In this document: positions 3,418 to 23,395 of the stretch, piece by piece
Layout of the letters: every line of letters begins with the position of its first letter
How positions within the stretch are numbered: position 1 is the first letter of the stretch
Program-made: the position numbers and the translations under genes
Notes under the pieces: model-generated
Database searches by the model: none
What the model was told of the DNA's origin: nothing
Seen by the model: only the letters and a program-made list of their open reading frames with translations
Assembly (NCBI GenBank): GCA_018970085.1
Contig: JAGWXD010000043.1
Location: 401 to 24,400 of the forward strand
Reading direction: 5' to 3'
DNA length: 24,000 nucleotides
From: Cyanobacteria bacterium REEB459
Lineage (GTDB): Bacteria; Cyanobacteriota; Cyanobacteriia; Phormidesmidales; Phormidesmidaceae

Positions 3418-4206
3418 TTAGAATTGGCGGCGGCGAATAATCAAAGCGGTAAGGCTAAGCACCAGGGCCGTATAGGCCAGGGCGTAAATGCCATGACTGA
3501 TCATCACTGTTTTCTGGGGTAATAGCTCCGGTCCATAAACGGCCAGGTTGCGTAAATTTAGTCGTTCCAAGTCGGGCAAAACCAGGTACAGCAGATGGCT
3601 GACTCGAGTTAAACCAGGGTCACGGTTTATCCGGGCCAGGTTGACCAGATTCTGACTCAGATGACCCATCAGGTAAACAGCCAGGCCTAGCAACAGAGCC
3701 AGCAGAGAACTGGTAAAGCTACCAAAAAATAGAGCGATCGCCGCTAACACCATGGCCTCCAAAGCGATAAACCCGATCGCCAGCAGCACACTACCGGCGG
3801 CAAAGGCTATGCCTTGCAGGCTCAACAGCAGCAGTAAGACCACCCCCAGGGCCGCCACCAGCAGCCCCAGTACCATCGTTAGTCCCAGGTGTTTGCCAAG
3901 GACAAATTCAGCCCGGCTCAGGGGCTTGGTTAGCACCACCAGAATAGTCCGCTTCTCCACTTCTCGATTGATTAGCCCTGACCCGACAAACAGGGCGACC
4001 ACCGCACTGAGCCAGTGGATCGCCGCCAACCCCAAATCCAGGAAAATTTTATCCTCCGTGCCAGCGGCAATGGCCGGCAACAGGGCCGCCACCGCCACCA
4101 TTAGCAGGGTAAACAAAGCCACCAGATAGAGCAGGCGATCGCGCAGGACCTCCAGATAAACATTGCCGGCAACCGCCGCAATTCGGGCTAGACCAGTGTT
4201 AACCAT
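3418..4206 (-). CDS. fraE: ABC-2 type permease-like membrane protein (FraE-like)
   Basis: I prefer ATG 4206 (MVNTGLARIAAVAGNVYLEVLRDRLLY), 4 nt after the upstream gene's stop, over the track start at 4305. The protein is polytopic with ABC-2 permease character. It is the third gene of a 192/328/262-aa membrane operon whose sizes and order match Anabaena fraC-fraD-fraE as I recall them. Confidence 0.55.
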   Translation of the reverse strand: MVNTGLARIAAVAGNVYLEVLRDRLLYLVALFTLLMVAVAALLPAIAAGTEDKIFLDLGLAAIHWLSAVVALFVGSGLINREVEKRTILVVLTKPLSRAEFVLGKHLGLTMVLGLLVAALGVVLLLLLSLQGIAFAAGSVLLAIGFIALEAMVLAAIALFFGSFTSSLLALLLGLAVYLMGHLSQNLVNLARINRDPGLTRVSHLLYLVLPDLERLNLRNLAVYGPELLPQKTVMISHGIYALAYTALVLSLTALIIRRRQF

Positions 4207-4210
4207 GACT

Positions 4211-5197
4211 CTAGGACAGGGGAGGAGGACCAGGGCGGGAGGGAATCTCTGGTTCACAGGTAAATTTAGCCCAGCGGGAGGGCGTTGGTAGGGCCGACTC
4301 AGCATCGCTGGCGGGTTTAAGAACAGGCATGAGCATACAGGTCTTCTCTAGATAGTAACTGCCTGGCTCAGCGGTGGGCCCGGTCCAGACGGCCAAAATC
4401 TTGAGCTCGTAGCCCTCTGCCTGGCTCTGGGGCTGGGGCAGTTGGATCTGCCAGAGTGAACTCTCAGGCGATGCCTGGGAATGGCTCTGGATCTGGGTTT
4501 GAATGGTTTGCTGATGGCCCTCACGGTTGAGCAGCCACCGTTCTACCGCCGACCAGGGCTGACCATCGGTTTGATCGGCAATAAAGCTTTCTGCCTCCGC
4601 CAAATGGGCCATCCCAGCCGATAGGGGCAGGGGTTGACCAGGCAGGCGATAGACAAAATTACTAGCACCGAAGCGATCGGCCCCCAGGCTGGGGTAGTCT
4701 TTCAACCAGCTTTGAATCCGAAAATGAAACTGTATCCAGCTACTGATTAAAAGACTAAAAAAAAATAGTAGCACTAAGCGTTGCCGCACTGGGGGCAGGG
4801 GGCGCTTGGGCTGGAGGTCCCAGGTCAGGACTTCGGGCACCGCCGCCACGCAAAACGAAATCAGGGGCCAACAAACCAGAGCCGTTGGTAACCATGGGCC
4901 TTGCCACGAACTAAATAGAAATAAACAGAGAACTCCCCCCGCCACCCAGGGCGCCAGCGTTAGGCCAAAGGGCTTGATCTGGCTATGCTCTACGGCCCAG
5001 CCCAGACCTATGGCCAGAAAGATCCAGCTACCACTGGCGAGCAATCCTACGGTAAAGCCACTAGCCCCCAGCAACCGTCCCAGCAGAGACATCAACCAGG
5101 AAAAAATGCTCAAATACAGAATCGTCTGCCAGGAAAAGTAGCGCTCTGGCAATACCAGGGATTTAAAGGCGGCGATGGTCTGGCCTAACCACTTCAT
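4211..5197 (-). CDS. fraD: Membrane protein with five N-terminal TM helices and a soluble C-terminal half (FraD-like septal protein)
   Basis: 328 aa with about 5 predicted hydrophobic helices in the first 160 aa and a Q/P-rich soluble tail. Its ATG overlaps the upstream stop (ATGA at 5194-5197). The assignment rests on operon architecture and is not verified by alignment. Confidence 0.5.
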   Translation of the reverse strand: MKWLGQTIAAFKSLVLPERYFSWQTILYLSIFSWLMSLLGRLLGASGFTVGLLASGSWIFLAIGLGWAVEHSQIKPFGLTLAPWVAGGVLCLFLFSSWQGPWLPTALVCWPLISFCVAAVPEVLTWDLQPKRPLPPVRQRLVLLFFFSLLISSWIQFHFRIQSWLKDYPSLGADRFGASNFVYRLPGQPLPLSAGMAHLAEAESFIADQTDGQPWSAVERWLLNREGHQQTIQTQIQSHSQASPESSLWQIQLPQPQSQAEGYELKILAVWTGPTAEPGSYYLEKTCMLMPVLKPASDAESALPTPSRWAKFTCEPEIPSRPGPPPLS

Positions 5198-5772
5198 GGG
5201 GCTACCTGGAGGACTAATCGAATCACTAATAAGAGCAGAATAGCGGTAAAACTAAGGGCGTTGGCGTGCAATACGGCCAGGGCATGGCTGGATTGCTCTG
5301 GCCCGGCGGGGGAGGGCTGGGGCTGAGACCGGGGGTAGAAACGGCGTTGGATTTTAGGCCGCGGTGCCACCACAGGCAAACTACCCAACAGGCGGGTGAG
5401 GGCATTTAACCCCTGTAGTTTCACCCAGTAGGTTAAAAAGAAAACCCCCATCGCCGTCACCACCACCATGACCGGCAAATTAGGGGATAACCCATTGACG
5501 TATAGGTGGTTAAACAAAACGTAGCTGATCACCTGTTGTTGCCACTCAGGAGGTAATACCGCCTCCAGGGCTAAAAAGGCCAGCCAGCCCAGGCTCGTGG
5601 CCAGCAGGTTAAGGCTAGCGGCATAGTGGACGCTGCTCTGGTAGCCCAAGCGTAGATGCTGCCGTAGCACCATGGCTTCCAGGGCAATCGCCACCATCAG
5701 CAGCATAGTTTGAAAAGCCATCGCTCGCAGTGGCATCAGGCCAAGGTCGGCCAGCAGGTCAGTGAAGGGCAT
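5194..5772 (-). CDS. fraC: Small polytopic membrane protein (FraC-like filament integrity protein)
   Basis: 192 aa. The N-terminal pattern LMPLRAMAFQTMLLMVAIALEAMVLRQHLRL..YAASLNLLATSLGWLAFLALEA resembles the FraC pattern I recall. It is the first gene of the three-gene operon. Confidence 0.5.
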   Translation of the reverse strand: MPFTDLLADLGLMPLRAMAFQTMLLMVAIALEAMVLRQHLRLGYQSSVHYAASLNLLATSLGWLAFLALEAVLPPEWQQQVISYVLFNHLYVNGLSPNLPVMVVVTAMGVFFLTYWVKLQGLNALTRLLGSLPVVAPRPKIQRRFYPRSQPQPSPAGPEQSSHALAVLHANALSFTAILLLLVIRLVLQVAP

Positions 5773-8619: not shown

Positions 8620-8697
<78 letters not shown>

Positions 8698-8841: not shown

Positions 8842-9930
8842 ATGGCCAGGAACCAAAAAAACGACGTTGCCATCGAGAATATAGATGGGTGGATTCGCCT
8901 TCGCTGGCAGTACCAGGGAAAGCGTTGCAGCTTGCGCCTGGGCTTGCCCTATGACCCGATAAATTTGGCTGTTGCCCAGCAACGGGTCAGCCAGATCAGG
9001 CTAGATATTCTCTCAGGTCACTATGATCCATCCCTGGTAAAGTACCGAGGCGGTGAACCCAAGCCACAGGTCATAGGAGCAGTGGAGCTCTTCACCCGGT
9101 TTATCGATTGGAAAGCCAAGCGGGTACAACCCAGGACGCTGGAGAAGTACTACGCCTTAACAGTTTGGCTGAAGGATCAGTTTGGCGATCGCAGCGTTGA
9201 TCCAGAGAATGCCGAAAAGTTCCTAGCCCACTTGCTAGATAACATGGAACCCATCACCGCCAGGGAGCGCCTGGCATTGCTTAACGCCGCCTGGGAATGG
9301 GGAGGGAAGCAGAACCTGGTGTCAGGTAACCCCTGGAGTGATTTAAGGGTCAGGAAGCCCCCTAAGCAAGCCCCCAAGCCATTTACCAAGGCACAGGTAG
9401 CTGCTATCATTGCCGGATTTAGTGAGTCTCGTTACTACCGCCACTATGCCGATTATGTACGGTTCAAGTTGGGGACGGGTTGCAGGACTGGAGAGGTCGC
9501 CGGGCTGCGGTGGAAGCACATTACTGCCGATTGCTCCTTAGTTTGGTTTGGCGAAAGCTTCACTCACGGGCAATTCAAGGACACTAAGACAGGCAAAGCC
9601 AGGGAAGTAAAATTATCCTCCTCTTTGGCCACCATGCTTAAAAATCGGATGCCGGACGATGTTGACCCCGATGCCTTGGTGTTCAGTGCTCCCAAGGGAG
9701 GGGCAATGGATGAACATAATTTTTGCAGAGCCTGGAGAATCGTCCTAAAAGCCCAGGGCATTGCCTACCGAAACCCATACAATACCCGCCATACCTTTAT
9801 CAGCCATGCTTTAGAGGCAGGCATGAGCCCAGTAGAAGTAGCTACCATCACAGGCCATAACGTCAAAACACTATTTGAGAATTACGCCGGCCTGATCAAG
9901 AGCCACCCCACCACACCAGAGCTGTTTTAA
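8842..9930 (+). CDS. Tyrosine-type site-specific integrase
   Basis: The C-terminal catalytic region has GCRTGEVAGLRW (Arg), NTRHTFISHALEAGMSPVEVATITGH (H-x-x-R ... H) and FENYAG (Tyr). The N-terminal arm-type domain reads IDGWIRLRWQYQGKR. Confidence 0.9.
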   Translation: MARNQKNDVAIENIDGWIRLRWQYQGKRCSLRLGLPYDPINLAVAQQRVSQIRLDILSGHYDPSLVKYRGGEPKPQVIGAVELFTRFIDWKAKRVQPRTLEKYYALTVWLKDQFGDRSVDPENAEKFLAHLLDNMEPITARERLALLNAAWEWGGKQNLVSGNPWSDLRVRKPPKQAPKPFTKAQVAAIIAGFSESRYYRHYADYVRFKLGTGCRTGEVAGLRWKHITADCSLVWFGESFTHGQFKDTKTGKAREVKLSSSLATMLKNRMPDDVDPDALVFSAPKGGAMDEHNFCRAWRIVLKAQGIAYRNPYNTRHTFISHALEAGMSPVEVATITGHNVKTLFENYAGLIKSHPTTPELF

Positions 9931-10193
9931 CGCCTACCAAAAGGTTTTTTCCGGCCACTGGGGAGCGATCGCCGGAAGTTTTCTATCGCCGCCTGGTGGG
10001 TCTGGGGGGCATCCTGGTTGGCTAGCCAGTCAAGGATCAGCTCACGGTTATAGAGGATAGGAGCTGTTGGCCCTTGCCCTCGCCGATAGTAATGAACTCC
10101 ATGAATCCATTGCTCCCGCAAGGCTTTAAGGCTGTCTGCCTTACACCGTAGCAGTTCACAGCATTCTTCAGTGGTCAACAGAGTGATCTGCAT
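9927..10193 (-). CDS. Small HTH DNA-binding protein, excisionase-like
   Basis: 88 aa. LLTTEECCELLRCKADSLKALREQWIHGVHY fits the Xis/MerR-type HTH pattern. It converges on and abuts the integrase gene. Confidence 0.55.
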   Translation of the reverse strand: MQITLLTTEECCELLRCKADSLKALREQWIHGVHYYRRGQGPTAPILYNRELILDWLANQDAPQTHQAAIENFRRSLPSGRKKPFGRR

Positions 10194-12237: not shown

Positions 12238-12697
12238 TTTTGAAAAAAGAGTAATGCTGGCAGGCTAAACCCCTGACGGCCTCAGCCACCAGCTTGACCA
12301 AATTGCCCCTAAGCCAGACTATTGGGTCGATGTGGCCCCAGGGTCACCCCTTTTGCCAACCACAACAACTCAGCAGCTCTCTATCGACAGATTGATAGTA
12401 CCTATGACCTGAAGTTCATAAGTACTCCTAGATTCTTCCCGAATCCGTAGATTCTGCAGTGATCCTGATCATCGACCGGTCAAGTCCTCCCTAACGCTAG
12501 ACACCATAAATCAACCCAAAGCATCACCCATGGAAAACCGATCTTTTTGAGCGGCTAAACGCTCAGATATGTTAGAATTGACTTTCAATCAAATATACAC
12601 CATTCGCCAATCAAATAGATCATGGGTTCTAGTTTGTCAGCAAGCGCCGACAATGATCTGAGTTAGGGGTTGCCTTAGTTTCTTGCTTGTACTTGAG

Positions 12698-12709
12698 GTA
12701 TCTAGATAC
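12698..12709. promoter_or_regulatory. Perfect 12-bp palindrome GTATCTAGATAC, candidate operator
   Basis: The sequence is self-complementary. It sits 6 bp upstream of the AAGGAG Shine-Dalgarno (12716-12721) of the XRE regulator. Confidence 0.4.
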
Positions 12710-12731
12710 ACCATTAAGGAGATACATACCC

Positions 12732-13061
12732 GTGGACCAAAAATTTCGAGATCGCTTTGCCCAGGTGATACTGGAGTTAAGGGGGAGTGAGCCACAGCGG
12801 AGTTTCTCCCAACGGTTAGGCATTTCCCAGGCCTCGGTATCTGCCTGGGAGAGGGGCAGTTTGCCTACCATCGAGAGCTTTGTCAAGATTGCCACCCTGC
12901 GGGGTCAATATCCCGAGGAATTTATGGCAGAGCTCTACAACCGCAACCCGGCTGAAGTGGCCATTGTGGACCGGGCGGAGATCATGACCAAAGCTCAGTT
13001 AATCGAGTCCTTAGAGGTATTGGTCACCAAACTAAAGGAGAAAGAATTCGAGGCTAACTGA
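12732..13061 (+). CDS. XRE/cI-family helix-turn-helix transcriptional regulator
   Basis: RSFSQRLGISQASVSAWERGSLPTIESFVKIATL is a classic HTH_XRE sequence. I prefer GTG 12732, which lies 10 nt after AAGGAG, over the track TTG start at 12687. Confidence 0.75.
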   Translation: MDQKFRDRFAQVILELRGSEPQRSFSQRLGISQASVSAWERGSLPTIESFVKIATLRGQYPEEFMAELYNRNPAEVAIVDRAEIMTKAQLIESLEVLVTKLKEKEFEAN

Positions 13062-13290: not shown

Positions 13291-14025
13291 CTAGGGCCCT
13301 TCCCCGACATAGCAGATCCGATTGGTGCCCCCAGAGCGGCTATAGGAGGAGCGATCGCCACAGGCTCGACCGGCATTATCTAGATCGTAGGGACAATCAC
13401 AGCGGCCCCGTTGGGGATCTCGAATCGGTACTGGAGTGGTCGGAGTCGGTTCCGGTAGGGGAGGGCTACTGGTTAACCCCTGACGGTAATCCCAGGGCAT
13501 TAGGGGGTTAGCCTGGCTCCAGAAATTTAACTTTGCCCGCCGGGCCTGGGCCTCCTCCGCCAGCAAAGTTTCTCGACTCTCTGGACAAGCGCTGAGGTAT
13601 TGCCGGTAGACCACCGCCTGGCCCTCCTGCACCAGCTTGAGGTTCACCGAAGTGCCATCCAGCAGGTATACCTCCGCCACAACTCGCCCGTAACGATCGC
13701 GGTCAACCTCTCGAAACCTGATCTCTGTTTTTTTAGGTAATAGTTCCCGCAGACGAGCAGCGGCAGCAGGACCGTAGGGAACCTGGGTTGATTCCGGAGC
13801 ATCAATACAGGCCATCCGTATCGTTAGCAGTTGACCTTGATAGGCCATCCGAAAGGTATCTCCATCACCGACAGAAATGACCGTACCAGTAGGTAGATTG
13901 GGACTCGGACTGGCAGTTTGTAGCGCTGGCGTAGGGGCTGGTTTCGTGAGATCGGCGGTGGCATTGGTGCCTACCAGAAGTAGTAGAGCCAGGGTCCCGG
14001 GAATCAAGTACTTGTATCTATTCAT
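13291..14025 (-). CDS. Secreted thermonuclease (staphylococcal nuclease/SNase family) with Cys-rich C-terminal tail
   Basis: The SNase core reads VGDGDTFRM..IRMACIDAPES..RYGRVVAEVYL..NLKLVQEGQAVVY..ARRAKLNFWS. I prefer ATG 14025 (MNRYKYLIPGTLALLLLVGTNATA, a signal peptide) over 14100. The tail reads RCDCPYDLDNAGRACGDRSSYSR. Confidence 0.85.
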   Translation of the reverse strand: MNRYKYLIPGTLALLLLVGTNATADLTKPAPTPALQTASPSPNLPTGTVISVGDGDTFRMAYQGQLLTIRMACIDAPESTQVPYGPAAAARLRELLPKKTEIRFREVDRDRYGRVVAEVYLLDGTSVNLKLVQEGQAVVYRQYLSACPESRETLLAEEAQARRAKLNFWSQANPLMPWDYRQGLTSSPPLPEPTPTTPVPIRDPQRGRCDCPYDLDNAGRACGDRSSYSRSGGTNRICYVGEGP

Positions 14026-14326
14026 GTCTAACTTGGTAGGGATGGATCCCTGAATGTGGTTGAATTCTTGCTTTCTAGTTTTAGCGCACCTTGCCTCCAA
14101 TATTGCCTACTGTCTCAAGGGCTCGGGCGTAGCCGGAGCCTCTAAAATATCTGCCCGGGCATCGCCGGGGCAGATCTCTAACCGAATCCTGAAAATCAGT
14201 TATCCCCAGAACAGCAGAGCCGTTAAGATTTAGAGGTGATAGATAAAAAAACAGATTCTAATCTCTGGATTAGCGCCGTTTCCTGTTTAATTTAGTGATG
14301 TTGGTTTAGCTGAAACCCTAAGACAG

Positions 14327-17281
14327 ATGGCTGGTATCCGGGTCCAATTCAGCACCTACTTGTACAAGCCGGTGATCCGGTCCATGGCTCTGGCGGGTTT
14401 AGGTCTGGCCCTCTCCCTGGCGATCGCGGGTGGGGTGAGACCGTCTGCCAGCCTGGCCCAGACCCAGGCCCCCACCCTGGTGGAGCGAGCCGATCAACTA
14501 TTGGAGAAACACCAACTGGCCCTGGGGGTAGCCGGCGCGGCGGTAGTGGGTTACCTGGGGGTACTGGGGCTGCGACCCCGATGGTTATTGAAACTCCCCT
14601 CCAAGGACATCACCCTACCCTGGACCCAGTGGACCCTACCCCTGACCCTGGTGAAGCCCTTGAAGTATCCCAACCGGGTGCTGGATGCCTGGGTGGAGGA
14701 TCATTGGCAGGTGGCGCGGGATCAATTTCTAGCCCTGGATACCGTAGATAACCGGACCCTTCACATTTCCCTACCGGTGGATCTGGACGGAATAACCCGG
14801 GAAGCCCTTCGCCCAGAGGATCTGGCTCCCACCTTTGCCAAGCAGCCCGCCCTTCTATTAATTACAGCGGAAGGGGGAGCGGGTAAAACCAGTTGGGCCT
14901 GCCAGATTGCCCAATGGGGGCTGGATAAAAAGTTAACTCAACACCGCCTGATTCCTTTATTGATTGAGAAGGACTTAGAGGAAGGGGTTTCCCTGCTAGA
15001 AACCCTGAGGGGGCGACTTGGCACCTTAACCGGCCAAAGTGATCCCCTGCCCCTGGACCTGGTGGAAAAGCTGCTGCGTCGCCAACGGTTGCTGGTGATT
15101 GTGGATCACCTATCGGAGATGGAAGCAACCACCCGTAAAGCCCTTAACCCGGATCTGCCGGACTTTGCCCCTAAGGCCCTGATTATCACCTCCCGTTTAG
15201 AGGAAAAGGATCGTCTGGGAAGTTTACCTAAGAGCATACTGAGGCCCCTACAGATTGAATCGACCCAGCTTTCGCTGTTTATGGTGGCCTACCTGAAGGC
15301 AAAAAATTTGGTGGGTCTACTGGAGGATGACGACTACTTTCTCGGTAGCGATCGCCTGCGCCGCATGACCGCCGATAAACCCATCACCCCCCTGCTGGCC
15401 TGCCTCTACATTGATCAGATGATCAACGAACGAAAAGGGGCCGGGGGCATCCTACCGGATTCTCTACCACGGTTGATGCTGAGCTACCTGACCCAGCTCA
15501 ACCGCGCCATCGAGCCCGCCAATAAACGGGAAGACCGGGAGGTACAACGGGATGCCAGGGCAGTGGCCTGGGCCTGTCTACAAAACACCTACCGCCCCAA
15601 CTGGATTAATACGGAAGCCGCCATCGCCGCCCTGGCCAGGGCGGAGGACAACACCGCCGAAGCCCGATTTCGCTACCTGAAGGACCGCCTATCCTTTCTG
15701 CAAAGCCCCGACCCGGGCGATCGCACCCGGGTGATATTAGACCCCCTGGCGGAATACCTGGCCGCCGCCTACCTGGTGGAACAGATTTCCCAGCAGCCAG
15801 ACCCCGAGGCGGCCTGGGAGGAGTTTTTTAGCCAGACCCTACCGGCCAAGCTGACCAAAACCGACAGTGATGCTATCCAGGTGAAGGGGTTCATCCTGGC
15901 CCTACGGGACTGCTGCCTTGACCAGAGCCAGGATGACGGCATCCCCGCCGGGGTGGCCGACCGCCTGGCCCGCACCGTTGATCTAGACCCCGAGGAACTG
16001 CGGCGCATCGAAGACCAGCGGCGGATTAAGCGGTTGATTGCCGACCTGGCGGAACCCAACCTAAAGGACCGCCTGCGGGCCGCCCAAGAGCTGACCACCT
16101 ACGGAGCCGCCGCCCGGGTGGCCGAACCCAACCTGGTGGGGATGCTAGAGAACCGCAAACAACAACCCCCCCAAGCCCGCCAGGCCGCCGCCGCCGCCCT
16201 GGGCAAACTGAAGATTGGCAACACCGCCCTGCTCACCCTGCTTCAGGATAGCCAAGAGGACCTGGAGGTGCGGGGCAGTGCCGCCCTGGCCCTGGGTGAA
16301 ATGGGCGCCGCCCAGGACACCCTATTGACCCTGCTCAACCATGAGCCCCAACCCCTGGCCCTGCGCCAGGCCGCCAGCCAGGCCCTGGGGTTAAGCGGGG
16401 GCCCCAGCAGCCAACCCCAGCCCATGCTAGAGCTAGGCCTGAGGGAGGGCCAGCCCCTCCCCCGGGTAATTAGCCCCCTGGTGTGGCGGGAAGCCCTGCC
16501 CCTGGAGCAAACCCTGGCCTTGGTGCAGATCCCGGCGGGGGAATTTGTGATGGGGTCTGGGGAGGGTGAGGAAGGCCGAGATTATTACCCCTATAATTTT
16601 CCAGAGACCCAAGGATTAGATGTAGAACAGCAACACCGGGTCAGCCTATCGGCCTTTTACCTGGGCCAGCACCCCGTCACCCAGGCCCAATGGCGAGCCG
16701 TCGCCAGCCTGCCCCCTATTAAGTATGAACTCAACCCAGACCCGGCCCAGTTTAAGGGGGAGCATCGACCCGTCGAGATGGTGACCTGGTATGAGGCGGT
16801 GGAATTTTGCGATCGCCTCTCTCAACACACCGGCAAACCCTACCGACTACCCAGCGAAGCGGAATGGGAATACGCCTGTCGGGCCGGTACCAGCACCCCC
16901 TTTTACTTCGGTGACACGATCACCCCCGACCTGGCCAACTACAACGGTAACTACAGTTATGGCTCTGGGCCGAAGGGAACCTATCGAGAACAGACTACCC
17001 CGGTGGGTAGCTTTGGGGTGAACCCCTGGGGACTAGCGGACATGCACGGTAATGTTTTGGAGTGGTGTGAAGACCACTGGCACCCCAGCTACGACAGTGC
17101 CCCCAGGGATGGTAGCGCCTGGGTGACTGGTGGCGATGATCGCTTTCGCCTGGTGCGGGGCGGGTCCGGGTTTAGCCTCCCAGTGGGCTGTCGCTCGGCC
17201 TTCCGCAATCGCCTCGATCCGAATGCTCGATTCAATGTCATCGGTTTTCGGGTGGTGTGTGCGCCGCCTGGGCTCCTGTAG
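14327..17281 (+). CDS. DGR target (variable) protein: TM helices, NACHT-like P-loop NTPase, HEAT repeats, FGE-sulfatase/C-type-lectin-fold domain carrying the VR
   Basis: Hydrophobic segments occur at aa ~20-36 and ~64-83. Walker A is ITAEGGAGKTSW (nt ~14870-14890). Walker B-like is RLLVIVDHLSEM (~15085-15120). Four PBS-lyase-type HEAT repeats (RLRAAQEL.., ARQAAAAALGKL, LEVRGSAALALGEMG, LALRQAASQALG) span nt ~16020-16400. The FGE/SUMF1 domain (GEFVMGS..HRVSLSAFYLGQHPVTQAQW..VTWYEAVEFC..LPSEAEWEYACRAG..GLADMHGNVLEWCED..VRGGS..IGFRVV) spans nt ~16515-17278. Confidence 0.9.
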   Translation: MAGIRVQFSTYLYKPVIRSMALAGLGLALSLAIAGGVRPSASLAQTQAPTLVERADQLLEKHQLALGVAGAAVVGYLGVLGLRPRWLLKLPSKDITLPWTQWTLPLTLVKPLKYPNRVLDAWVEDHWQVARDQFLALDTVDNRTLHISLPVDLDGITREALRPEDLAPTFAKQPALLLITAEGGAGKTSWACQIAQWGLDKKLTQHRLIPLLIEKDLEEGVSLLETLRGRLGTLTGQSDPLPLDLVEKLLRRQRLLVIVDHLSEMEATTRKALNPDLPDFAPKALIITSRLEEKDRLGSLPKSILRPLQIESTQLSLFMVAYLKAKNLVGLLEDDDYFLGSDRLRRMTADKPITPLLACLYIDQMINERKGAGGILPDSLPRLMLSYLTQLNRAIEPANKREDREVQRDARAVAWACLQNTYRPNWINTEAAIAALARAEDNTAEARFRYLKDRLSFLQSPDPGDRTRVILDPLAEYLAAAYLVEQISQQPDPEAAWEEFFSQTLPAKLTKTDSDAIQVKGFILALRDCCLDQSQDDGIPAGVADRLARTVDLDPEELRRIEDQRRIKRLIADLAEPNLKDRLRAAQELTTYGAAARVAEPNLVGMLENRKQQPPQARQAAAAALGKLKIGNTALLTLLQDSQEDLEVRGSAALALGEMGAAQDTLLTLLNHEPQPLALRQAASQALGLSGGPSSQPQPMLELGLREGQPLPRVISPLVWREALPLEQTLALVQIPAGEFVMGSGEGEEGRDYYPYNFPETQGLDVEQQHRVSLSAFYLGQHPVTQAQWRAVASLPPIKYELNPDPAQFKGEHRPVEMVTWYEAVEFCDRLSQHTGKPYRLPSEAEWEYACRAGTSTPFYFGDTITPDLANYNGNYSYGSGPKGTYREQTTPVGSFGVNPWGLADMHGNVLEWCEDHWHPSYDSAPRDGSAWVTGGDDRFRLVRGGSGFSLPVGCRSAFRNRLDPNARFNVIGFRVVCAPPGLL
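17147..17270 (+). repeat. DGR variable repeat (VR), 3' end of the target gene
   Basis: Gap-free 124-bp alignment to 19014-19137 (offset 1867). There are 20 mismatches, 19 of them at TR adenines. The repeat is in frame and encodes [41 protein letters not shown]. Confidence 0.9.
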
Positions 17282-17331
17282 CCCTTTACCCTTTTGCGCT
17301 TTTGCCCTTTGCCCTGGGTCGAGGTTCGAAT

Positions 17332-17346
17332 ACGCGCGGAGCGCGT
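17332..17346 (+). terminator. GC hairpin ACGCGC-GGA-GCGCGT followed by TTTAAAAATTTTT (terminator and/or DGR target-recognition hairpin)
   Basis: Perfect 6-bp GC-rich stem, 51 nt after the target stop codon, with an A/T tract downstream. Confidence 0.4.
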
Positions 17347-17485
17347 TTAAAAATTTTTCAGTGCCACGGCTGGGTATTCGTTCTAGCTGGCCGGCGACTA
17401 TAACCTTAGGTAACATTATGGGCCACCGCCACATCTAGGGGTGTAGAGTGATATTTTCACCCCTTTACCCCCAGATAGGCAATTT

Positions 17486-17863
17486 ATGACTAAACCTGCC
17501 GTCGCCGATTTGCCCGTCATTCAAAAAGCTTACGATCTGGTGAAGTGGTACGTCCCCATTCTGAACCGCCTACCCCGAGATCATCGTTTCACCCTGGGGG
17601 AACGCATCATTCAAGGGCTCTATGACCTGTTAGAAGGCCTGATCCAGGCCCGTTACAGCGCCAATAAACTAGAGCGTCTACAAACCCTCAACATCCGCCT
17701 GGACCTGCTTCGCCACCAAACCCGACTTCTATTCGACTTTCACCTGATGGAGGTTAGTCGTTATGAGTATGTTGGCACGATGATCAACGACCTGGGCATG
17801 GAACTAGGGGGATGGATAAAACAACAGAAAACCCGTCAGCCCCCCTCACTGCACCCCAGTTAA
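17486..17863 (+). CDS. avd: DGR accessory variability determinant (Avd), four-helix-bundle protein
   Basis: 125 aa. [50 protein letters not shown] matches the four-helix-bundle / 23S rRNA-IVS protein family used as DGR Avd. It lies immediately upstream of the RT. Confidence 0.85.
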
Positions 17864-17879
17864 ACCCCGGGTAACCACC

Positions 17880-18956
17880 ATGAAACGCCACGGCTACCTG
17901 TGGGAGGGGATTATTGACTTTGCCAACCTGCTGGCAGCGGCCCGCCAGGCCCAGAAAGGGCGACGGATGCGGGATAACATTCTGCGCTTTAACTACAACC
18001 TGGAATCAGAACTCCTCCAACTACGCCAGGAACTGATCAACCAAACCTATTCTCCTGGACCCTACACCACCTTTCAGGTGAGGGAACCCAAGGCCCGATT
18101 AATTTCTGCCGCACCCTACCGGGACCGGGTGATTCACCATGCCCTGTGTAACGTGATCCTACCGATCTTTGAGGTCACCTTCATTCGTGATTCCTACGCT
18201 AACCGGCTGGGCTATGGCAGCCATCGAGCCCTGAAGCGATTTATCGAATTTAGCCGCTCCAGCCGCTATATCTTGCAATGTGACGTGCGCAAGTACTTCC
18301 CCTCCATCGACCATGCCCTTCTCAAGGAAATGATTCGCCGCAAGATCAAATGCCCCCCTACCCTGTGGCTGATTGATCGGATCATCGATGCCAGCAACGA
18401 CCAGGAGCCGGTGATTGACTATTTCCCTGGAGATGACCTACTCACCCCCATTCAGCGGCGGCGGGGCCTACCGATTGGTAACCTGACCAGTCAATTCTTT
18501 GCCAACATCTACCTGAATAGCCTGGATCACCTGGTCAAAGAACAGCTCCGTATAGCAAAGTATCTGCGCTACGTCGATGACTTTGCCCTATTTGCCGATG
18601 ACCGAGATACCTTAATCACAGCCCGCTTAGCTCTCGAAGCCCACCTAGCCAAACTACGCTTGAGGATTCACCCCATTAAAAGTCAACTGTTTGAAACATC
18701 CCGAGGCCCCACCTTTGTTGGGTTTCGGGTTTGCCCAGACCGGGTGCGGGTCAGATCCGCCAGCCTTCGCCGTGGTCGATATCGCCTGAAACGATATCAA
18801 CGACAGTACGCCCAGCATGATTTATCCTTCGAGCAACTGACCCAGGCCATTCGTAGCTGGGCAGCCCACCTGAAACATGCCGACACCTGGCACTTGAGAG
18901 CCGACATTTTTACCCAGTTAGTGTTTGTCAAAACTCCCAAGCTGCAAACAAGATGA
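17880..18956 (+). CDS. DGR reverse transcriptase
   Basis: RT motifs are present: [47 protein letters not shown] (the DGR-typical I/LGxxxSQ), [14 protein letters not shown] (catalytic YVDD) and FVGFRV. At 358 aa it has no maturase or endonuclease extension. Confidence 0.9.
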
Positions 18957-19013
18957 AAAATACTCCACTCAAGGCCAATTTAGCCTAGGGTGAAGGCTAG
19001 GGGCAGGTCAGCC

Positions 19014-19137
19014 CACCTGGTGCGGGGCGGGTCCTGGTATAACAACCCAGTAAACTGTCGCTCGGCCAACCGCAATCGCAACAATCCGAATAATCGAAAC
19101 AATAACATCGGTTTTCGGGTGGTGTGTGCGCCGCCTG
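19014..19137 (+). repeat. DGR template repeat (TR)
   Basis: It starts 57 nt after the RT stop. In the VR frame it reads [41 protein letters not shown], with 12 AAY codons. Adenines at third codon positions occur only in 4-fold degenerate codons (CCA, GTA, CGA). The last 28 nt contain no adenine and are identical to the VR. Confidence 0.9.
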
Positions 19138-19503
19138 CACTCTTGAGCGCCAGAGCCAGTCAATGATCATTGATTGGGCGTGCCCATAAGAGTCCAGACC
19201 TGCTCCTGTCATACCCCCTGGCTCTCTAATCCTGGAGACCTGGTATGCAAAAACACCCCTGGGCTGAGCAGCCTGGTAGGCCATAGCTCGACGGGTTGTT
19301 TAGCCCATCCCTCCATTTGCCCGAGCTGCGGACCTTAAGAGATGCGGACCTTAAGAAAGGTTTTTAGATTTGAGCTCCCTAATCACTCCCCCGTAGAGTG
19401 AATAAATCACATCACACTCCCGACCCTGCCACCCCGGCGGGGTTCTTAGTTTGTGGTTGTCATCGCTGACGTCACAACTAACCCTGGGCTTCAGTGCCCC
19501 CCC

Positions 19504-19713: not shown

Positions 19714-20121
19714 CTAATACCCCAACGCCTTCACCACATAGTCTGGTAACGACTCCACCCCCGTAGGTGGACTCTCCTGGGAAAAGGTAATCAACCGTAC
19801 ATAGCCACTCTCCCCCTCCTCCCCACTGCCCACAGGGCGGCTAAACCAGATGGCCGCCCCATACTTGGGATTACTACCACAGCGCCTCAGATAGTAATGG
19901 CCCATCCACCAGACCACCGTCGGCCCATAGGGATCTCGCTTAATTTCATGGGCCCCAATTCGACTCACCCAATTGCCCCCATACTCTGACAAAGGCTTAC
20001 GCCAATTAGGCGGATGCTGACTGGCCAGTGCCATCATCGCCAGCTCTATACGCTTGAGGGTCTCCGTCAATAGCCCAAACAGGGCACTGGTATCGCTGCC
20101 ATTACCGGTGGTAGTCGCCAT
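19714..20121 (-). CDS. Hypothetical protein (phage-like module)
   Basis: 135 aa. AAGGAG sits 8 nt upstream of ATG 20121. No motif recognised. Confidence 0.6.
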   Translation of the reverse strand: MATTTGNGSDTSALFGLLTETLKRIELAMMALASQHPPNWRKPLSEYGGNWVSRIGAHEIKRDPYGPTVVWWMGHYYLRRCGSNPKYGAAIWFSRPVGSGEEGESGYVRLITFSQESPPTGVESLPDYVVKALGY

Positions 20122-20161
20122 AATTTCAACTCCTTTAACTCAAGTTTTGCTAGACAAGCCC

Positions 20162-20935
20162 TTAGGGAAAGCAAAACAAACTGGGCTGAAACCCCGACAC
20201 CGCCGCCGCCGCCAGCCCCGTATCTAGATCAATGCCAATGGCGTCATAGCCCCGCTCACCCGCCGCCAACAAAGAGGTACCCGTGCCACAAAAGGGATCC
20301 AACACCGTAGCCCGCTGCCGCGTTGCACAGCCGAGTAACCGCCGGGCCAGGGCCGGGGCCATCTTACAGGGATGCTCTGAAGCCACCGACGGATAGGCCA
20401 GCACACTGGTATCGGTGGGGGTATAGGCTAACCGGGGCCGCTGCCGGCGATCGCAACCCAACACAAACACATACTCATGGCAACGGCGAGGATTGCCCAA
20501 GGGCTGCTGACTGCGGTTACCCTGATGCCAGATCAAGGTTTCACGATGCACCCACCCCGCCCCCTGCAACCGCTGTAGCAATAGCCAGGGCACCGGTATC
20601 TCCTCCCCACTGCGATAGCCAGGCTCCGGCCTCCGGCGATAGGACGCCGCCGCCCCCCGACCCCCTCGCCTAACCACGCTATAGCCACTGGTGGTCGGCC
20701 CCAGGTTCAGCCACAACACCCCCCCCTGGGCCATACCCGCCTGCACCAGGGCAAACACCCGCTCTAGACAACCCAGATAGGCCCCTAGACTTTCCTCATG
20801 GCCGTACTCCCCCGGATGGCCGTAGTCAATCAGACCATAGTAGGGGGGACTGGTGAGGGCATAGTGCCACCCCCGGCCCTGGGAAAGGAGCGTTTGCAGG
20901 TGGGTCAGGGCATCGCCCTGGAATAGGTCAATCAT
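20162..20935 (-). CDS. DNA methyltransferase, N4/N6 family, beta-class motif order (orphan)
   Basis: Catalytic motif IV is LTSPPYYGL near the N-terminus. The AdoMet motif I, VLDPFCGTGTSLLAA, is near the C-terminus and is preceded by HPCKMAPALARRLL. Confidence 0.85.
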   Translation of the reverse strand: MIDLFQGDALTHLQTLLSQGRGWHYALTSPPYYGLIDYGHPGEYGHEESLGAYLGCLERVFALVQAGMAQGGVLWLNLGPTTSGYSVVRRGGRGAAASYRRRPEPGYRSGEEIPVPWLLLQRLQGAGWVHRETLIWHQGNRSQQPLGNPRRCHEYVFVLGCDRRQRPRLAYTPTDTSVLAYPSVASEHPCKMAPALARRLLGCATRQRATVLDPFCGTGTSLLAAGERGYDAIGIDLDTGLAAAAVSGFQPSLFCFP

Positions 20936-21001
20936 GGATTTAGTCCGAAGGAAGCAGGGTTACCCCCAGCCAGGGCCAGGGTGTTAGCAATCGACCAACC
21001 C

Positions 21002-21862
21002 TCAAGCCCGCTGGGCGGCCTGGGAACTGGCCAGACTGGTAATCAACTCAACCAGGCGATCGCAGTCGCTAGAGGACAACTGGCGCGGATTAGTCCGCCC
21101 ATCAAACTCCGCCATAATCAAACTGCGCACCGACTCCAGATCTAAGCCCGCCGCCTCCCGGGCCACCCGGACCCGCCGCCCCTTACTCTCCCCACTCTCC
21201 TCCATCGGACTGCCATCACTGAGCCAGAGCATCAGGGTATCGGCCAAAGACTCCCCCGGATTAGCATGGGTGGTATTAGCCAGGGCCGGACAGCGGCTCT
21301 TGGAAATCGAGAGGATATGGTTAAGATCCATCTCCCCCGCCAGGTCAAACTCATACTCAATACCAGAGGCCTGAATCGGGGCCATCCCCACCTTGCGGGG
21401 GGCCGTCCTACCTTTCTGGTCTTCTTCTAATACCCACTCCGTCTTCGTCCGCATGGTGCCGATGATATGGGCGGGAGACCCCAGCATCTCCTGAACCAAA
21501 GCCCGCTCTAGCTTGCGCACATCTCCCCAGGCGGCAAAGGAATTTTGGGCTTGACTGGTCTTATCTAACTCCCAGAACCAGGCATGGCTAAGGGAATCAA
21601 TAATGATCACCTCATACTCCGCCTGGGCCGCCTCCCGTAACAGATTGATGTAATTACCGGGATGGCAATCCTTCAACTCACAGACATCAAACTCGAACCG
21701 GTCAGCATACTTACTGGCACTGCCATGCTCGGTGTCAATCACCGCAATCCGTCTACCCAGATGCTGGGCAATATTGAGAGCGCTGTAGGTCTTACCACAG
21801 CCACTCGGCCCCGATAGGGCCAGCCGCAGGCGGGATTGGTGTTTAGTGGCCTTCTTAAACAT
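21002..21862 (-). CDS. AAA_24 / Sak4-like RecA-fold ATPase (phage recombination-replication type)
   Basis: I prefer ATG 21862 (MFKKATKHQSRLRLALSGPSGCGKTYSALN), which has TAAGGAG 7 nt upstream. Walker A is GPSGCGKT. Walker B is EVIIIDSLSHAW. Confidence 0.75.
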   Translation of the reverse strand: MFKKATKHQSRLRLALSGPSGCGKTYSALNIAQHLGRRIAVIDTEHGSASKYADRFEFDVCELKDCHPGNYINLLREAAQAEYEVIIIDSLSHAWFWELDKTSQAQNSFAAWGDVRKLERALVQEMLGSPAHIIGTMRTKTEWVLEEDQKGRTAPRKVGMAPIQASGIEYEFDLAGEMDLNHILSISKSRCPALANTTHANPGESLADTLMLWLSDGSPMEESGESKGRRVRVAREAAGLDLESVRSLIMAEFDGRTNPRQLSSSDCDRLVELITSLASSQAAQRA

Positions 21863-21884
21863 GGTCAATCTCCTTAGTGGAATA

Positions 21885-22142
21885 CTAAAACTCGTCAGAA
21901 TCAACCTCAGTCAAGGGCGAGACCTGCCGCCTGCCCTTCACCCCCCCGGGGGATAAACCAGCCAACTCACCCTCAAAATTACGAAACAGCGCCCCCACCA
22001 CCGCCAGTAGACCCCAGCGGTCTACGATGGCTTGCAGGTGGGCCAGGTCCAATTCCCAGGCCTGGGCGCGTTCATCCTCGATTCGCTCCTGTTCAGCCTG
22101 GTAATGCTGATAGGCCAGTTCAACGGGTTCACGGACCATCAT
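21885..22142 (-). CDS. Hypothetical protein
   Basis: I prefer ATG 22142 (MMVREPVELAYQHYQ...), preceded by GGAGGAG and lying 13 nt after the upstream stop. The track start at 22280 would overlap the upstream gene. Confidence 0.5.
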   Translation of the reverse strand: MMVREPVELAYQHYQAEQERIEDERAQAWELDLAHLQAIVDRWGLLAVVGALFRNFEGELAGLSPGGVKGRRQVSPLTEVDSDEF

Positions 22143-22155
22143 GGTGATCTCCTCC

Positions 22156-22482
22156 CTACAGGGCCTCAAGCTTGGTCTCAATCCGTTGGATCGCCGCATA
22201 GGTGTCCTGAAGTAGCTCCAGGCTGGGCACCTCAGGCCGAGCAGGATCCCTGAGACTCTGATCAATTGCCTGTAGCTCACTCAAAACCTCCCCAAGCAGG
22301 GCTTGAACCTTCCCCACCTGGGCCGATTTCAGACTTTGCCGGTAGTTGCTGAGCTTCGCAGCGGCCACTATGGCCATATCCAACACATCATCCAGGGCCT
22401 TATCCGGCTGATTCCTACTCCAAACATTGGGATTAGCCAGCAACGCGGCCATCAATTGAATCAGAATTGGGTCGTCATCCAT
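22156..22482 (-). CDS. Hypothetical helical protein
   Basis: 108 aa. GAAGGAG lies upstream of ATG 22482. No family recognised. Confidence 0.5.
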   Translation of the reverse strand: MDDDPILIQLMAALLANPNVWSRNQPDKALDDVLDMAIVAAAKLSNYRQSLKSAQVGKVQALLGEVLSELQAIDQSLRDPARPEVPSLELLQDTYAAIQRIETKLEAL

Positions 22483-22600
22483 GGTTCTTTCTCCTTCAAT
22501 CAGTAATTAGTGGGCAGATGCTAGCGATCGCGGCGGCTGATGTTCTGGGGATAACCCTTGAGAAAAAGGGCCTTTTAACGCCCTGCCCAGGGCTTGTAAC

Positions 22601-22891
22601 CTAGCCCTGCCTGAGGGCCGAAAGGGGCTGAGGCTGAAAGTGCAGATCTCGCTCTACCGGTAACCCCAGCACCGTGACCGACTCCAACTCACTGAGACTG
22701 AAATAACCCAATTCTTCTTCCAACCCCTGCACCAGGCCAAACAACAGATCTTCCCCATCAAACTCGGTGACATACCAGCGAAAGCAAGACAGGGGATGGA
22801 AAAACTTGACCCGAGCGATTGGATCCTCTACCTTCTCTTGGGAATAGAGGGGAGGGAGGGTTTGACGGATAGTTTTAGGTAGCAGTTCCAT
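22601..22891 (-). CDS. DUF2958 domain protein
   Basis: [59 protein letters not shown]...[11 protein letters not shown] matches the DUF2958 consensus as I recall it. Confidence 0.7.
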
Positions 22892-22921
22892 AGATTGAGT
22901 TCCTTCTTGATTGCAGATTGA

Positions 22922-23395
22922 TTAGGCGGCATAGACCGCTACAGCTTCATGAACCCGGGGAAATCGGCTAATCTTCTGGGCCTGGAGGTACTCATTTAAA
23001 GAACTCAAGCCAAGACGCCTAAGCACTGCGTAGCCATGCTTACAGCAACCCCGAGTAAAAAACTCCAACTGGTTATTAAAATCGTCACAGGTGCAGAAAA
23101 ACCCATCAGCCCGTTGCTCCACCAAGTAGGCGGTATTTTGGCGAGGATTACGGACGGTGTAATGATTAGCCAGATCGAGGCGTTGGGTTACCCTTAGCCC
23201 TTGACTCTGAGCCTTTCGCCACTCCACAAAATGCTGGAGAAATACTCGCTTACTGATAAAGGTGGGCCGCCGCCCCTTGACCCAAACCCAGATCACCCAA
23301 GCAAATTTCTTGAGTTGAATGGGAACCGAGGAATTTAACCCTAATAGACGACGCACAGCCGCAGCAGAATAGAGGATGTTAAAAGCGGTAACCAT
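22922..23395 (-). CDS. SWIM zinc-finger protein
   Basis: FCTCDDFNNQLEFFTRGCCKHGYAVL fits the CxC-x(n)-CxH SWIM signature. Confidence 0.65.
   Translation of the reverse strand: MVTAFNILYSAAAVRRLLGLNSSVPIQLKKFAWVIWVWVKGRRPTFISKRVFLQHFVEWRKAQSQGLRVTQRLDLANHYTVRNPRQNTAYLVEQRADGFFCTCDDFNNQLEFFTRGCCKHGYAVLRRLGLSSLNEYLQAQKISRFPRVHEAVAVYAA

Follow-up and report, generated by a model that had tools for sequence, protein, structure and literature searches.

An open reading frame (ORF) that ends in a sequence repeated further downstream, with the two copies differing almost only where the downstream one has adenine, raises the question of whether a diversity-generating retroelement (DGR) has been rewriting that gene, and whether it still does so. 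Such an ORF lies in Cyanobacteria bacterium REEB459, in a stretch of 24,000 nucleotides (positions 401 to 24,400 of contig JAGWXD010000043.1, assembly GCA_018970085.1; hereafter the window, in whose own numbering all coordinates are given). We conclude with high confidence that its forward strand holds, at 14327-19306, an intact DGR, probably of the cyanobacterial reverse transcriptase (RT) lineage; the host is a filamentous cyanobacterium and a close relative of Nodosilinea. The variable repeat (VR) forms the end of a large target gene, the genes for the accessory variability determinant (Avd) and the RT follow, and the template repeat (TR) comes last, framed by structured RNA (Table 1).

Table 1. 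Features of the DGR locus and its surroundings in the window (HTH, helix-turn-helix; CLec, C-type lectin; IMH, initiation of mutagenic homing).
Feature	Position	Strand	Description
tRNA-Pro(GGG)	8624-8697		
Tyrosine integrase	8842-9930		Beside tRNA-Pro
Excisionase-like HTH	9927-10193		
HTH_3 protein	12687-13061		
SNase-family nuclease	13291-14100	-	Directly 5′ of target, divergent; PADLOC candidate-effector model C3a212 'SNc+LTD'
DGR target gene	14327-17281	+	984 aa; putative NACHT-type P-loop NTPase, NCH4, HEAT repeats, C-terminal FGE-sulfatase/CLec domain
VR	17147-17270	+	3′ end of target ORF (last ~45 residues); 5′ edge may be 17149
IMH/IMH*-like region	17241-17278	+	Adenine-free, G+C-rich VR 3′ end, then diverged tail
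GC-rich hairpin	17332-17346	+	ACGCGC-GGA-GCGCGT, then TTAAAAATTTTT; 62 nt past VR end
avd	17486-17863	+	125 aa; Pfam bAvd, E 6.7e-19
DGR RT	17880-18956	+	358 aa; IGNLTSQ and YVDD motifs
Long-range RNA duplex	18999-19009 with 19197-19207	+	RT-TR spacer with sequence 3′ of TR; RNAalifold, 41 loci
TR	19014-19137	+	Starts 58 nt past RT stop codon
Structured 3′ domain of DGR RNA	19138-19306	+	Spacer equivalent; RNAalifold, covariation
Helix P1	19139-19145 / 19187-19193	+	Begins exactly at end of VR/TR homology
9-bp stem-loop	19156-19177	+	Loop GATC; RNAalifold
Hairpin, then AAAAA	19208-19248	+	RNAalifold
Long terminal hairpin	19261-19306	+	Longer alignment
Terminator-like hairpin	19422-19444	+	Consensus scan only
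DdrB-like protein, N6/N4 DNA methylase, AAA_24 ATPase, DUF2958	Within 19714-23395	-	Right of DGR

A Repeat Pair That Differs at Adenines

The original prediction, made from the letters alone, had aligned VR and TR by hand at a constant offset of 1867, and recomputation returned an identical alignment of 124 positions with 0 gaps and 20 mismatches. Its mismatch spectrum also held on recounting: the TR base is A at 19 of the 20 mismatches (A to G 8 times, A to T 8 times, A to C 3 times), 19 of the 30 TR adenines are substituted, and the computed alignment has no indels, with far more than 80 percent of its mismatches at TR adenines. Randomly placed, 20 mismatches would put at least 19 on the 30 TR adenines with a hypergeometric P of 8.6e-14. 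A repeat search independently recovered the same pair as 17149-17278 and 19016-19145. The sole mismatch outside adenines is a T-to-G change at 17168. The A-to-G mismatch at 17148 lies right at the margin of the repeat, and a related strain (L081, described below) also has G there; the true 5′ boundary of the VR may therefore be 17149, in which case 18 of 29 adenines are substituted.

With respect to the target ORF, the VR starts in frame 0. In this frame the TR has the 12 AAY codons that had been counted, each of which can change to 15 amino acids and never to a stop, and adenine occurs at third positions only in the codons CCA, GTA and CGA. The predicted diversity stood in part: 15^12 is 1.3e14, and the TAT and ATC codons, both found in the TR, each add a factor of 4, giving 2.1e15 protein variants; left out was the CAC codon at 17147-17149, with A at position 2 and four outcomes, which raises the number to 15^12 x 4^3 = 8.3e15. 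The reading of the pair as the TR and VR of a DGR, with adenine-specific mutagenesis aimed at AAY codons of the target frame, is thus supported, and every expected DGR component is intact.

A scan of both strands of the window with adenines masked found no second VR-like copy. A 20/23 inverted match between VR 17169-17191, where the sequence is specific to the VR and not shared by the TR, and 19825-19847 on the opposite strand, inside the DdrB-like gene, is a marginal case, probably due to chance; the match cannot be extended, and the best among 30 shuffled VRs was 19/23.

Avd and the Reverse Transcriptase

RTs of the DGR type carry [I/L/V]GxxxSQ where group II intron RTs have QGxxxSP, along with a YxDD catalytic motif, and both DGR-type motifs are present in the window RT. 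Among solved structures it is most similar to the DGR RT of Bordetella phage (8ub7, E 1.8e-49); the top group II intron RT trails well behind, at E 3.8e-19. Most DGRs also encode Avd; here the adjacent small protein scores 136.8 bits against the NCBIfam equivalog model DivGenRetAVD (cutoff 80), and its best solved match is Bbp7 (PDB 4dwl, E 0.003). Target, avd and RT ORFs are all full length, with catalytic motifs intact. An exact-protein look-up with the window RT returned no identical record.

RT homologs number in the thousands; the nearest are 63-76% identical and come almost all from filamentous cyanobacteria, with a single one, from a Nodosilinea metagenome-assembled genome (MAG), at 99%. 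Relatives at 65-76% include those of Leptolyngbya, Thermoleptolyngbya, Nostoc, Scytonema, Fischerella and others. By similarity ranking, and by the RNA and TR consensus that it shares, the window RT appears to belong to the cyanobacterial DGR RT clade. Some RTs at 63-66% identity lie on contigs labelled Acidobacteriota/Blastocatellia, Thiomargarita, Thiotrichaceae or Parabeggiatoa (L023, L024, L033, L042, L046, L047, L070, L076 and L079). The three of these that entered the RNA alignments described below (L024, L070 and L079) have the same TR-flanking RNA; either horizontal spread beyond cyanobacteria or mis-binning would account for such contigs.

To place the locus among its kin, 80 related loci were taken from species-representative genomes, among which the window's own genome is not represented, and were screened for repeats with at least 80% of mismatches at A in one copy. 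Adenine-biased TR/VR pairs were present in 50 of the 80. The TR lies 3′ of the RT gene in 47 of these 50 (median gap 48 nt), so the order target-avd-RT-TR is the norm of the lineage. Two or three VRs occur in 21 of the 50.

Related Strains and the Question of Activity

The 99% RT belongs to a contig of the Nodosilinea MAG (L081) whose positions 1-2603 correspond to window 16521-18976, and which covers avd and RT along with the last part of the target gene. The two loci are mosaic. Avd and RT are 98-99% identical to those of the window, with 1-3 differences per 100 nt, whereas the target gene just 5′ of the VR has 12-25 differences per 100 nt (about 13%); over its last 304 residues the target is 73% identical (nucleotides about 85-87%). 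The switch in identity coincides with the 5′ boundary of the VR, which suggests recombination, or exchange of an avd-RT-TR cassette between different target alleles.

Between the two VRs there are 23 differences, 22 of them at TR-adenine positions, and against the window TR the L081 VR has 19 differences, every one at an adenine. At the non-adenine positions, the TR and both VRs are identical in 93 of 94. These patterns indicate that the two VRs were diversified independently. Non-adenine VR positions that are held to the TR while their surroundings diverge, together with independent changes at adenines, are exactly what continuing retrohoming predicts, and from this comparison of sequences we infer that the DGR is currently active.

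A third VR allele, with differences mainly at adenine positions, occurs in a metagenomic relative (L082) whose target protein is 84% identical. There, the place of avd and RT after the large target is taken by a CLec-only gene of 220 aa (L082 7071-7733), whose end is VR-like and diverged (42/120 mismatches to the window TR). The diversifier of this relative is either located elsewhere in its genome or lost.

Structured RNA around the Template Repeat

Throughout the clade the sequence 3′ of the TR shows striking conservation, and RNAalifold applied to 41 aligned loci, with a longer alignment of 47 sequences for the terminal hairpin, gives the helices listed in Table 1. Over this structure, standard pairs occupy 97% of cells and compensatory changes are found in 23 of 33 pairs; the long-range duplex that joins the two sides of the TR has them in 6 of 8. 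None of 500 shuffled controls reached the observed values, and sliding the pairing partners by 1-3 columns lowers pairing to 36-52%. Every helix is kept in the window RNA. In the hairpin followed by AAAAA, where the loop is enlarged in the window, a compensatory swap has placed C-G at 19210/19247, a pair that is G-C in 45 of the 47 aligned sequences. The avd-RT-TR transcript may end at the terminator-like hairpin further downstream.

None of the TR-flanking RNA elements is new. In DGRs of Cyanobacteriota, Avd-binding stem-loops of ~9 bp with GNRA tetraloop caps just 3′ of the TR, and a 'cPRT Stop' duplex that pairs sequences 5′ and 3′ of the TR, have been described (Handa et al., 10.1101/2023.10.23.563531); the elements of the window are the same, and its long-range duplex corresponds to the 'cPRT Stop' duplex. 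Among Rfam models, the tRNA alone reaches its gathering score in the window, and the DGR RNA is covered by no curated family.

The Target Site 3′ of the Variable Repeat

VR and TR are identical over their final 30 nt, a segment that lacks A altogether. Past 17270 the copies diverge yet stay similar (VR GGCTCCTG, TR CACTCTTG), and 17241-17278 would by analogy resemble the relationship of IMH and IMH* in the Bordetella phage BPP-1 (PMC3240598).

A GC-rich hairpin comparable to that of the window lies 3′ of most VRs in the clade, second and third VRs included. These hairpins have 5-8 bp stems of differing sequence and a loop of 3-4 nt, followed by a TCGAAATTTTTT-like tail, and the distance from VR to hairpin is mostly 33-70 nt. 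In BPP-1, a hairpin/cruciform 3′ of the VR is required for homing, and across phage DGRs it lies 4-34 bp from the VR (Guo et al., PMC3240598). The window hairpin resembles this element and, by analogy, may take part in homing. We considered a plain intrinsic terminator and rejected it as the sole explanation, since the conserved TCGAAA-like spacer parts the T-run from the stem and the element also follows remote VRs; a dual role is possible.

The Target Gene and Its Lectin Domain

The target protein has two hydrophobic segments near its N-terminus, at about residues 16-38 and 63-83, and exceeds the Pfam cutoff for NCH4 (43.4 bits, cutoff 27). Its P-loop NTPase region shows GGAGKTS as Walker A and LLVIVDH as a Walker B-like motif, and many of its homologs have precomputed PF05729 matches. 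The C-terminal FGE-sulfatase/CLec domain spans residues 731-977 (Pfam FGE-sulfatase, 165.5 bits) and matches the Treponema DGR variable protein TvpA (2y3c, E 3.7e-26); the VR encodes residues 941-981 of the 984, within the FGE-sulfatase domain. A C-type-lectin or Ig-like fold, which tolerates variation, at the end of the target ORF is the typical setting of a DGR VR. The architecture NACHT-NCH4-HEAT-FGE is common and widespread in filamentous cyanobacteria. The product would be a membrane-anchored NACHT-HEAT-CLec protein and is probably a sensor, whose role may lie in antigen sensing or in signalling.

The divergent SNase gene directly upstream may encode the effector partner of this sensor. 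The order HTH-SNase-target is kept in two relatives, the metagenomic locus described above (L082 2059-3326) and L083 (1781-3063).

Proposed Mechanism and Rival Explanations

If the element works as does its Bordetella phage counterpart, avd, RT, TR and about 170 nt of structured 3′ RNA would be transcribed together, and the RNA would fold around the RT-Avd complex. The RT would prime itself on this RNA and copy the TR into cDNA, faithfully at C, G and U and with near-random bases opposite A. Lastly, the 3′ homology, rich in G+C and free of adenine, and the hairpin past the VR would guide this cDNA into the 3′ end of the target gene, where it would take the place of the VR. Self-priming, misincorporation and the parts played by hairpin and 3′ homology are all proposed here from homology to that phage system. 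The predicted outcome is that the ligand-binding face of the CLec domain would be rewritten at twelve AAY codons and at three codons with a single A, never to a stop, giving up to about 8e15 variants.

Several observations weigh against an intact, active DGR with a NACHT-type sensor as its target. The Pfam NACHT match of the target is 16.6 bits, below the family cutoff of 26.7, and none of the PADLOC defence-system models matches it. The T-to-G change at 17168 converts TGG (Trp) to GGG (Gly) in the conserved GGSW motif; the TGG codon is invariant in 41 of 41 aligned TRs and the L081 VR has T, so that the change is private to the window. Possible origins are a rare RT error outside adenine, a point mutation acquired afterwards, or an error of sequencing; the change argues, weakly, for stopped homing, since a fresh homing event would erase it. 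Finally, the 9-bp stem-loop carries GATC at 19165-19168, where nearly all relatives have GNRA (GGGA, GTGA, GGAA) and the only other deviating loop is that of L015 (ACTA). A DGR that diversified the VR in the past, and whose cassette no longer works, so that the VR is now frozen and drifting, would account for both the lost Trp codon and the altered loop. Small loop changes can be harmful, and loop sequence matters in the DNA hairpin of BPP-1 (PMC3240598). Such a fossil is nonetheless very improbable in our judgement: the three ORFs are full length with intact catalytic motifs, every RNA helix is kept, the compensatory swap at 19210/19247 included, and drift has touched only 1 of 94 non-adenine positions despite the divergence of about 13% from L081 in the adjacent target sequence, a sign that the VR was overwritten from the TR not long ago.

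An ordinary duplicated gene fragment that diverged in the normal way, its adenine bias arising by chance or compositional drift, would explain that a repeat exists and nothing more. The concentration of mismatches at adenines (P as above) stands against it, as do the position of the TR outside any lectin-domain gene, in a noncoding stretch past the RT gene, and the recurrence of this arrangement, next to Avd, in 47 related loci; we give this explanation a negligible probability. An intact DGR accounts for the locus far better than either.

Genomic Context

Towards its left end the window holds ordinary filamentous-cyanobacterial chromosome, with fraC, DUF5357 and ABC-2 permease among the genes there. 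These three form a filament-integrity cluster at 3418-5772, from which, together with HIP1-like GCGATCGC palindromes, the host is identified as a filamentous cyanobacterium. Closer to the DGR, the tRNA-Pro, integrase and excisionase-like HTH lie 4-5.5 kb to its left, and on its right the AAA_24 ATPase shares 45-49% identity with p81 of Myxococcus phage Mx8 and with mycobacteriophage ATPases. A search of the window for a further copy, 14 nt or longer, of any part of the tRNA-Pro region, as would mark an att site, found none, and virion genes are also absent from the window. It appears that an integrated element of phage origin either contains the DGR or adjoins it. Integrase, DdrB-like protein, methylase, AAA_24 ATPase and DUF2958 are essentially absent from the 81 related DGR loci searched for them, so these flanking genes are not a general part of the DGR unit.

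A wider proposal, which we regard as speculative and rather unlikely, is that HTH regulator, SNase, target, avd, RT and TR are cargo of a phage-derived element at tRNA-Pro, a self-diversifying sensor-plus-effector module that moves horizontally between filamentous cyanobacteria as one piece, and that the near-identity of avd-RT to L081, beside a target at 73% amino acid identity, reflects recent exchange of the diversifier between sensor genes.

Relation to Known Systems and Significance

The cyanobacterial DGR lineage has been described as Lineage 4 (Wu et al. 2018, PMC5758913), as a monophyletic cyanobacterial RT clade (Vallota-Eastman et al. 2020, PMC7517822) and as clade 5E (Dore et al. 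2024, PMC10907252). The window locus shares with it the gene order, the TR consensus (AAC/AAT runs within a GGSW...GFRVV framing), the flanking RNA structure, multidomain targets with a C-terminal CLec domain and a filamentous host (here with fraC/fraD genes). It departs from the lineage in its target, which is NACHT-NCH4-HEAT-CLec, whereas the commonest published targets are kinase fusions (PMC7517822) and those of clade 5E are vWA/MoxR-associated (PMC10907252), as well as in its GATC rather than GNRA loop and in the integrase and phage-like genes beside it.

Comparison with the BPP-1 DGR (mtd-avd-TR-brt) reveals common features at several levels: adenine-specific transfer from TR to VR, the pair of Avd and RT, a VR at the C-terminus of a C-type-lectin fold, adenine-free GC-rich 3′ homology and a GC-rich hairpin past the VR. 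The RNAs also agree in having a duplex between 5′ and 3′ TR flanks, a tetraloop-capped 9-bp stem-loop, a hairpin with adenosines and a long terminal stem-loop. However, the TR of BPP-1 lies between avd and RT and that of the window after RT, and the 5′ strand of the window duplex thus comes from the RT-TR spacer, not from the 3′ end of avd as in BPP-1. In addition, the VR-hairpin distance of 62 nt exceeds the 4-34 bp of phage DGRs, the DNA hairpin has a 3-nt loop and not GRNA, and the target is a cellular STAND-type protein where that of BPP-1 is a phage tail fibre.

The target also resembles the 'putative antigen sensors' of multicellular bacteria, STAND/NACHT-CLec proteins diversified by DGRs (Dore et al. 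2024, clade 5D, PMC10907252; Kaur et al. 2020, PMC7159879). Likenesses are a central, putatively NACHT-type NTPase, a single C-terminal DGR-diversified CLec domain, a multicellular host and a possible adjacent effector, the SNase in the window. The RT, by contrast, appears to be cyanobacterial and not of the proteobacterial 5D type, and the window has one target where two are reported to be common in 5D.

As a DGR, the locus is nothing new in kind, its lineage, gene order, RNA elements and multidomain CLec targets all having been published. It is a clean example, with nucleotide-level coordinates for each functional element and a comparison strain in which the VR was rewritten independently. 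Two further points would, if confirmed, carry modest weight. Vallota-Eastman et al. (PMC7517822) were unable to place any cyanobacterial DGR definitively in a prophage, and here one lies among integrase and phage-like genes. Likewise, a conserved divergent SNase beside a NACHT-CLec target would fit the idea of Dore et al. that such putative sensors are coupled to effectors.

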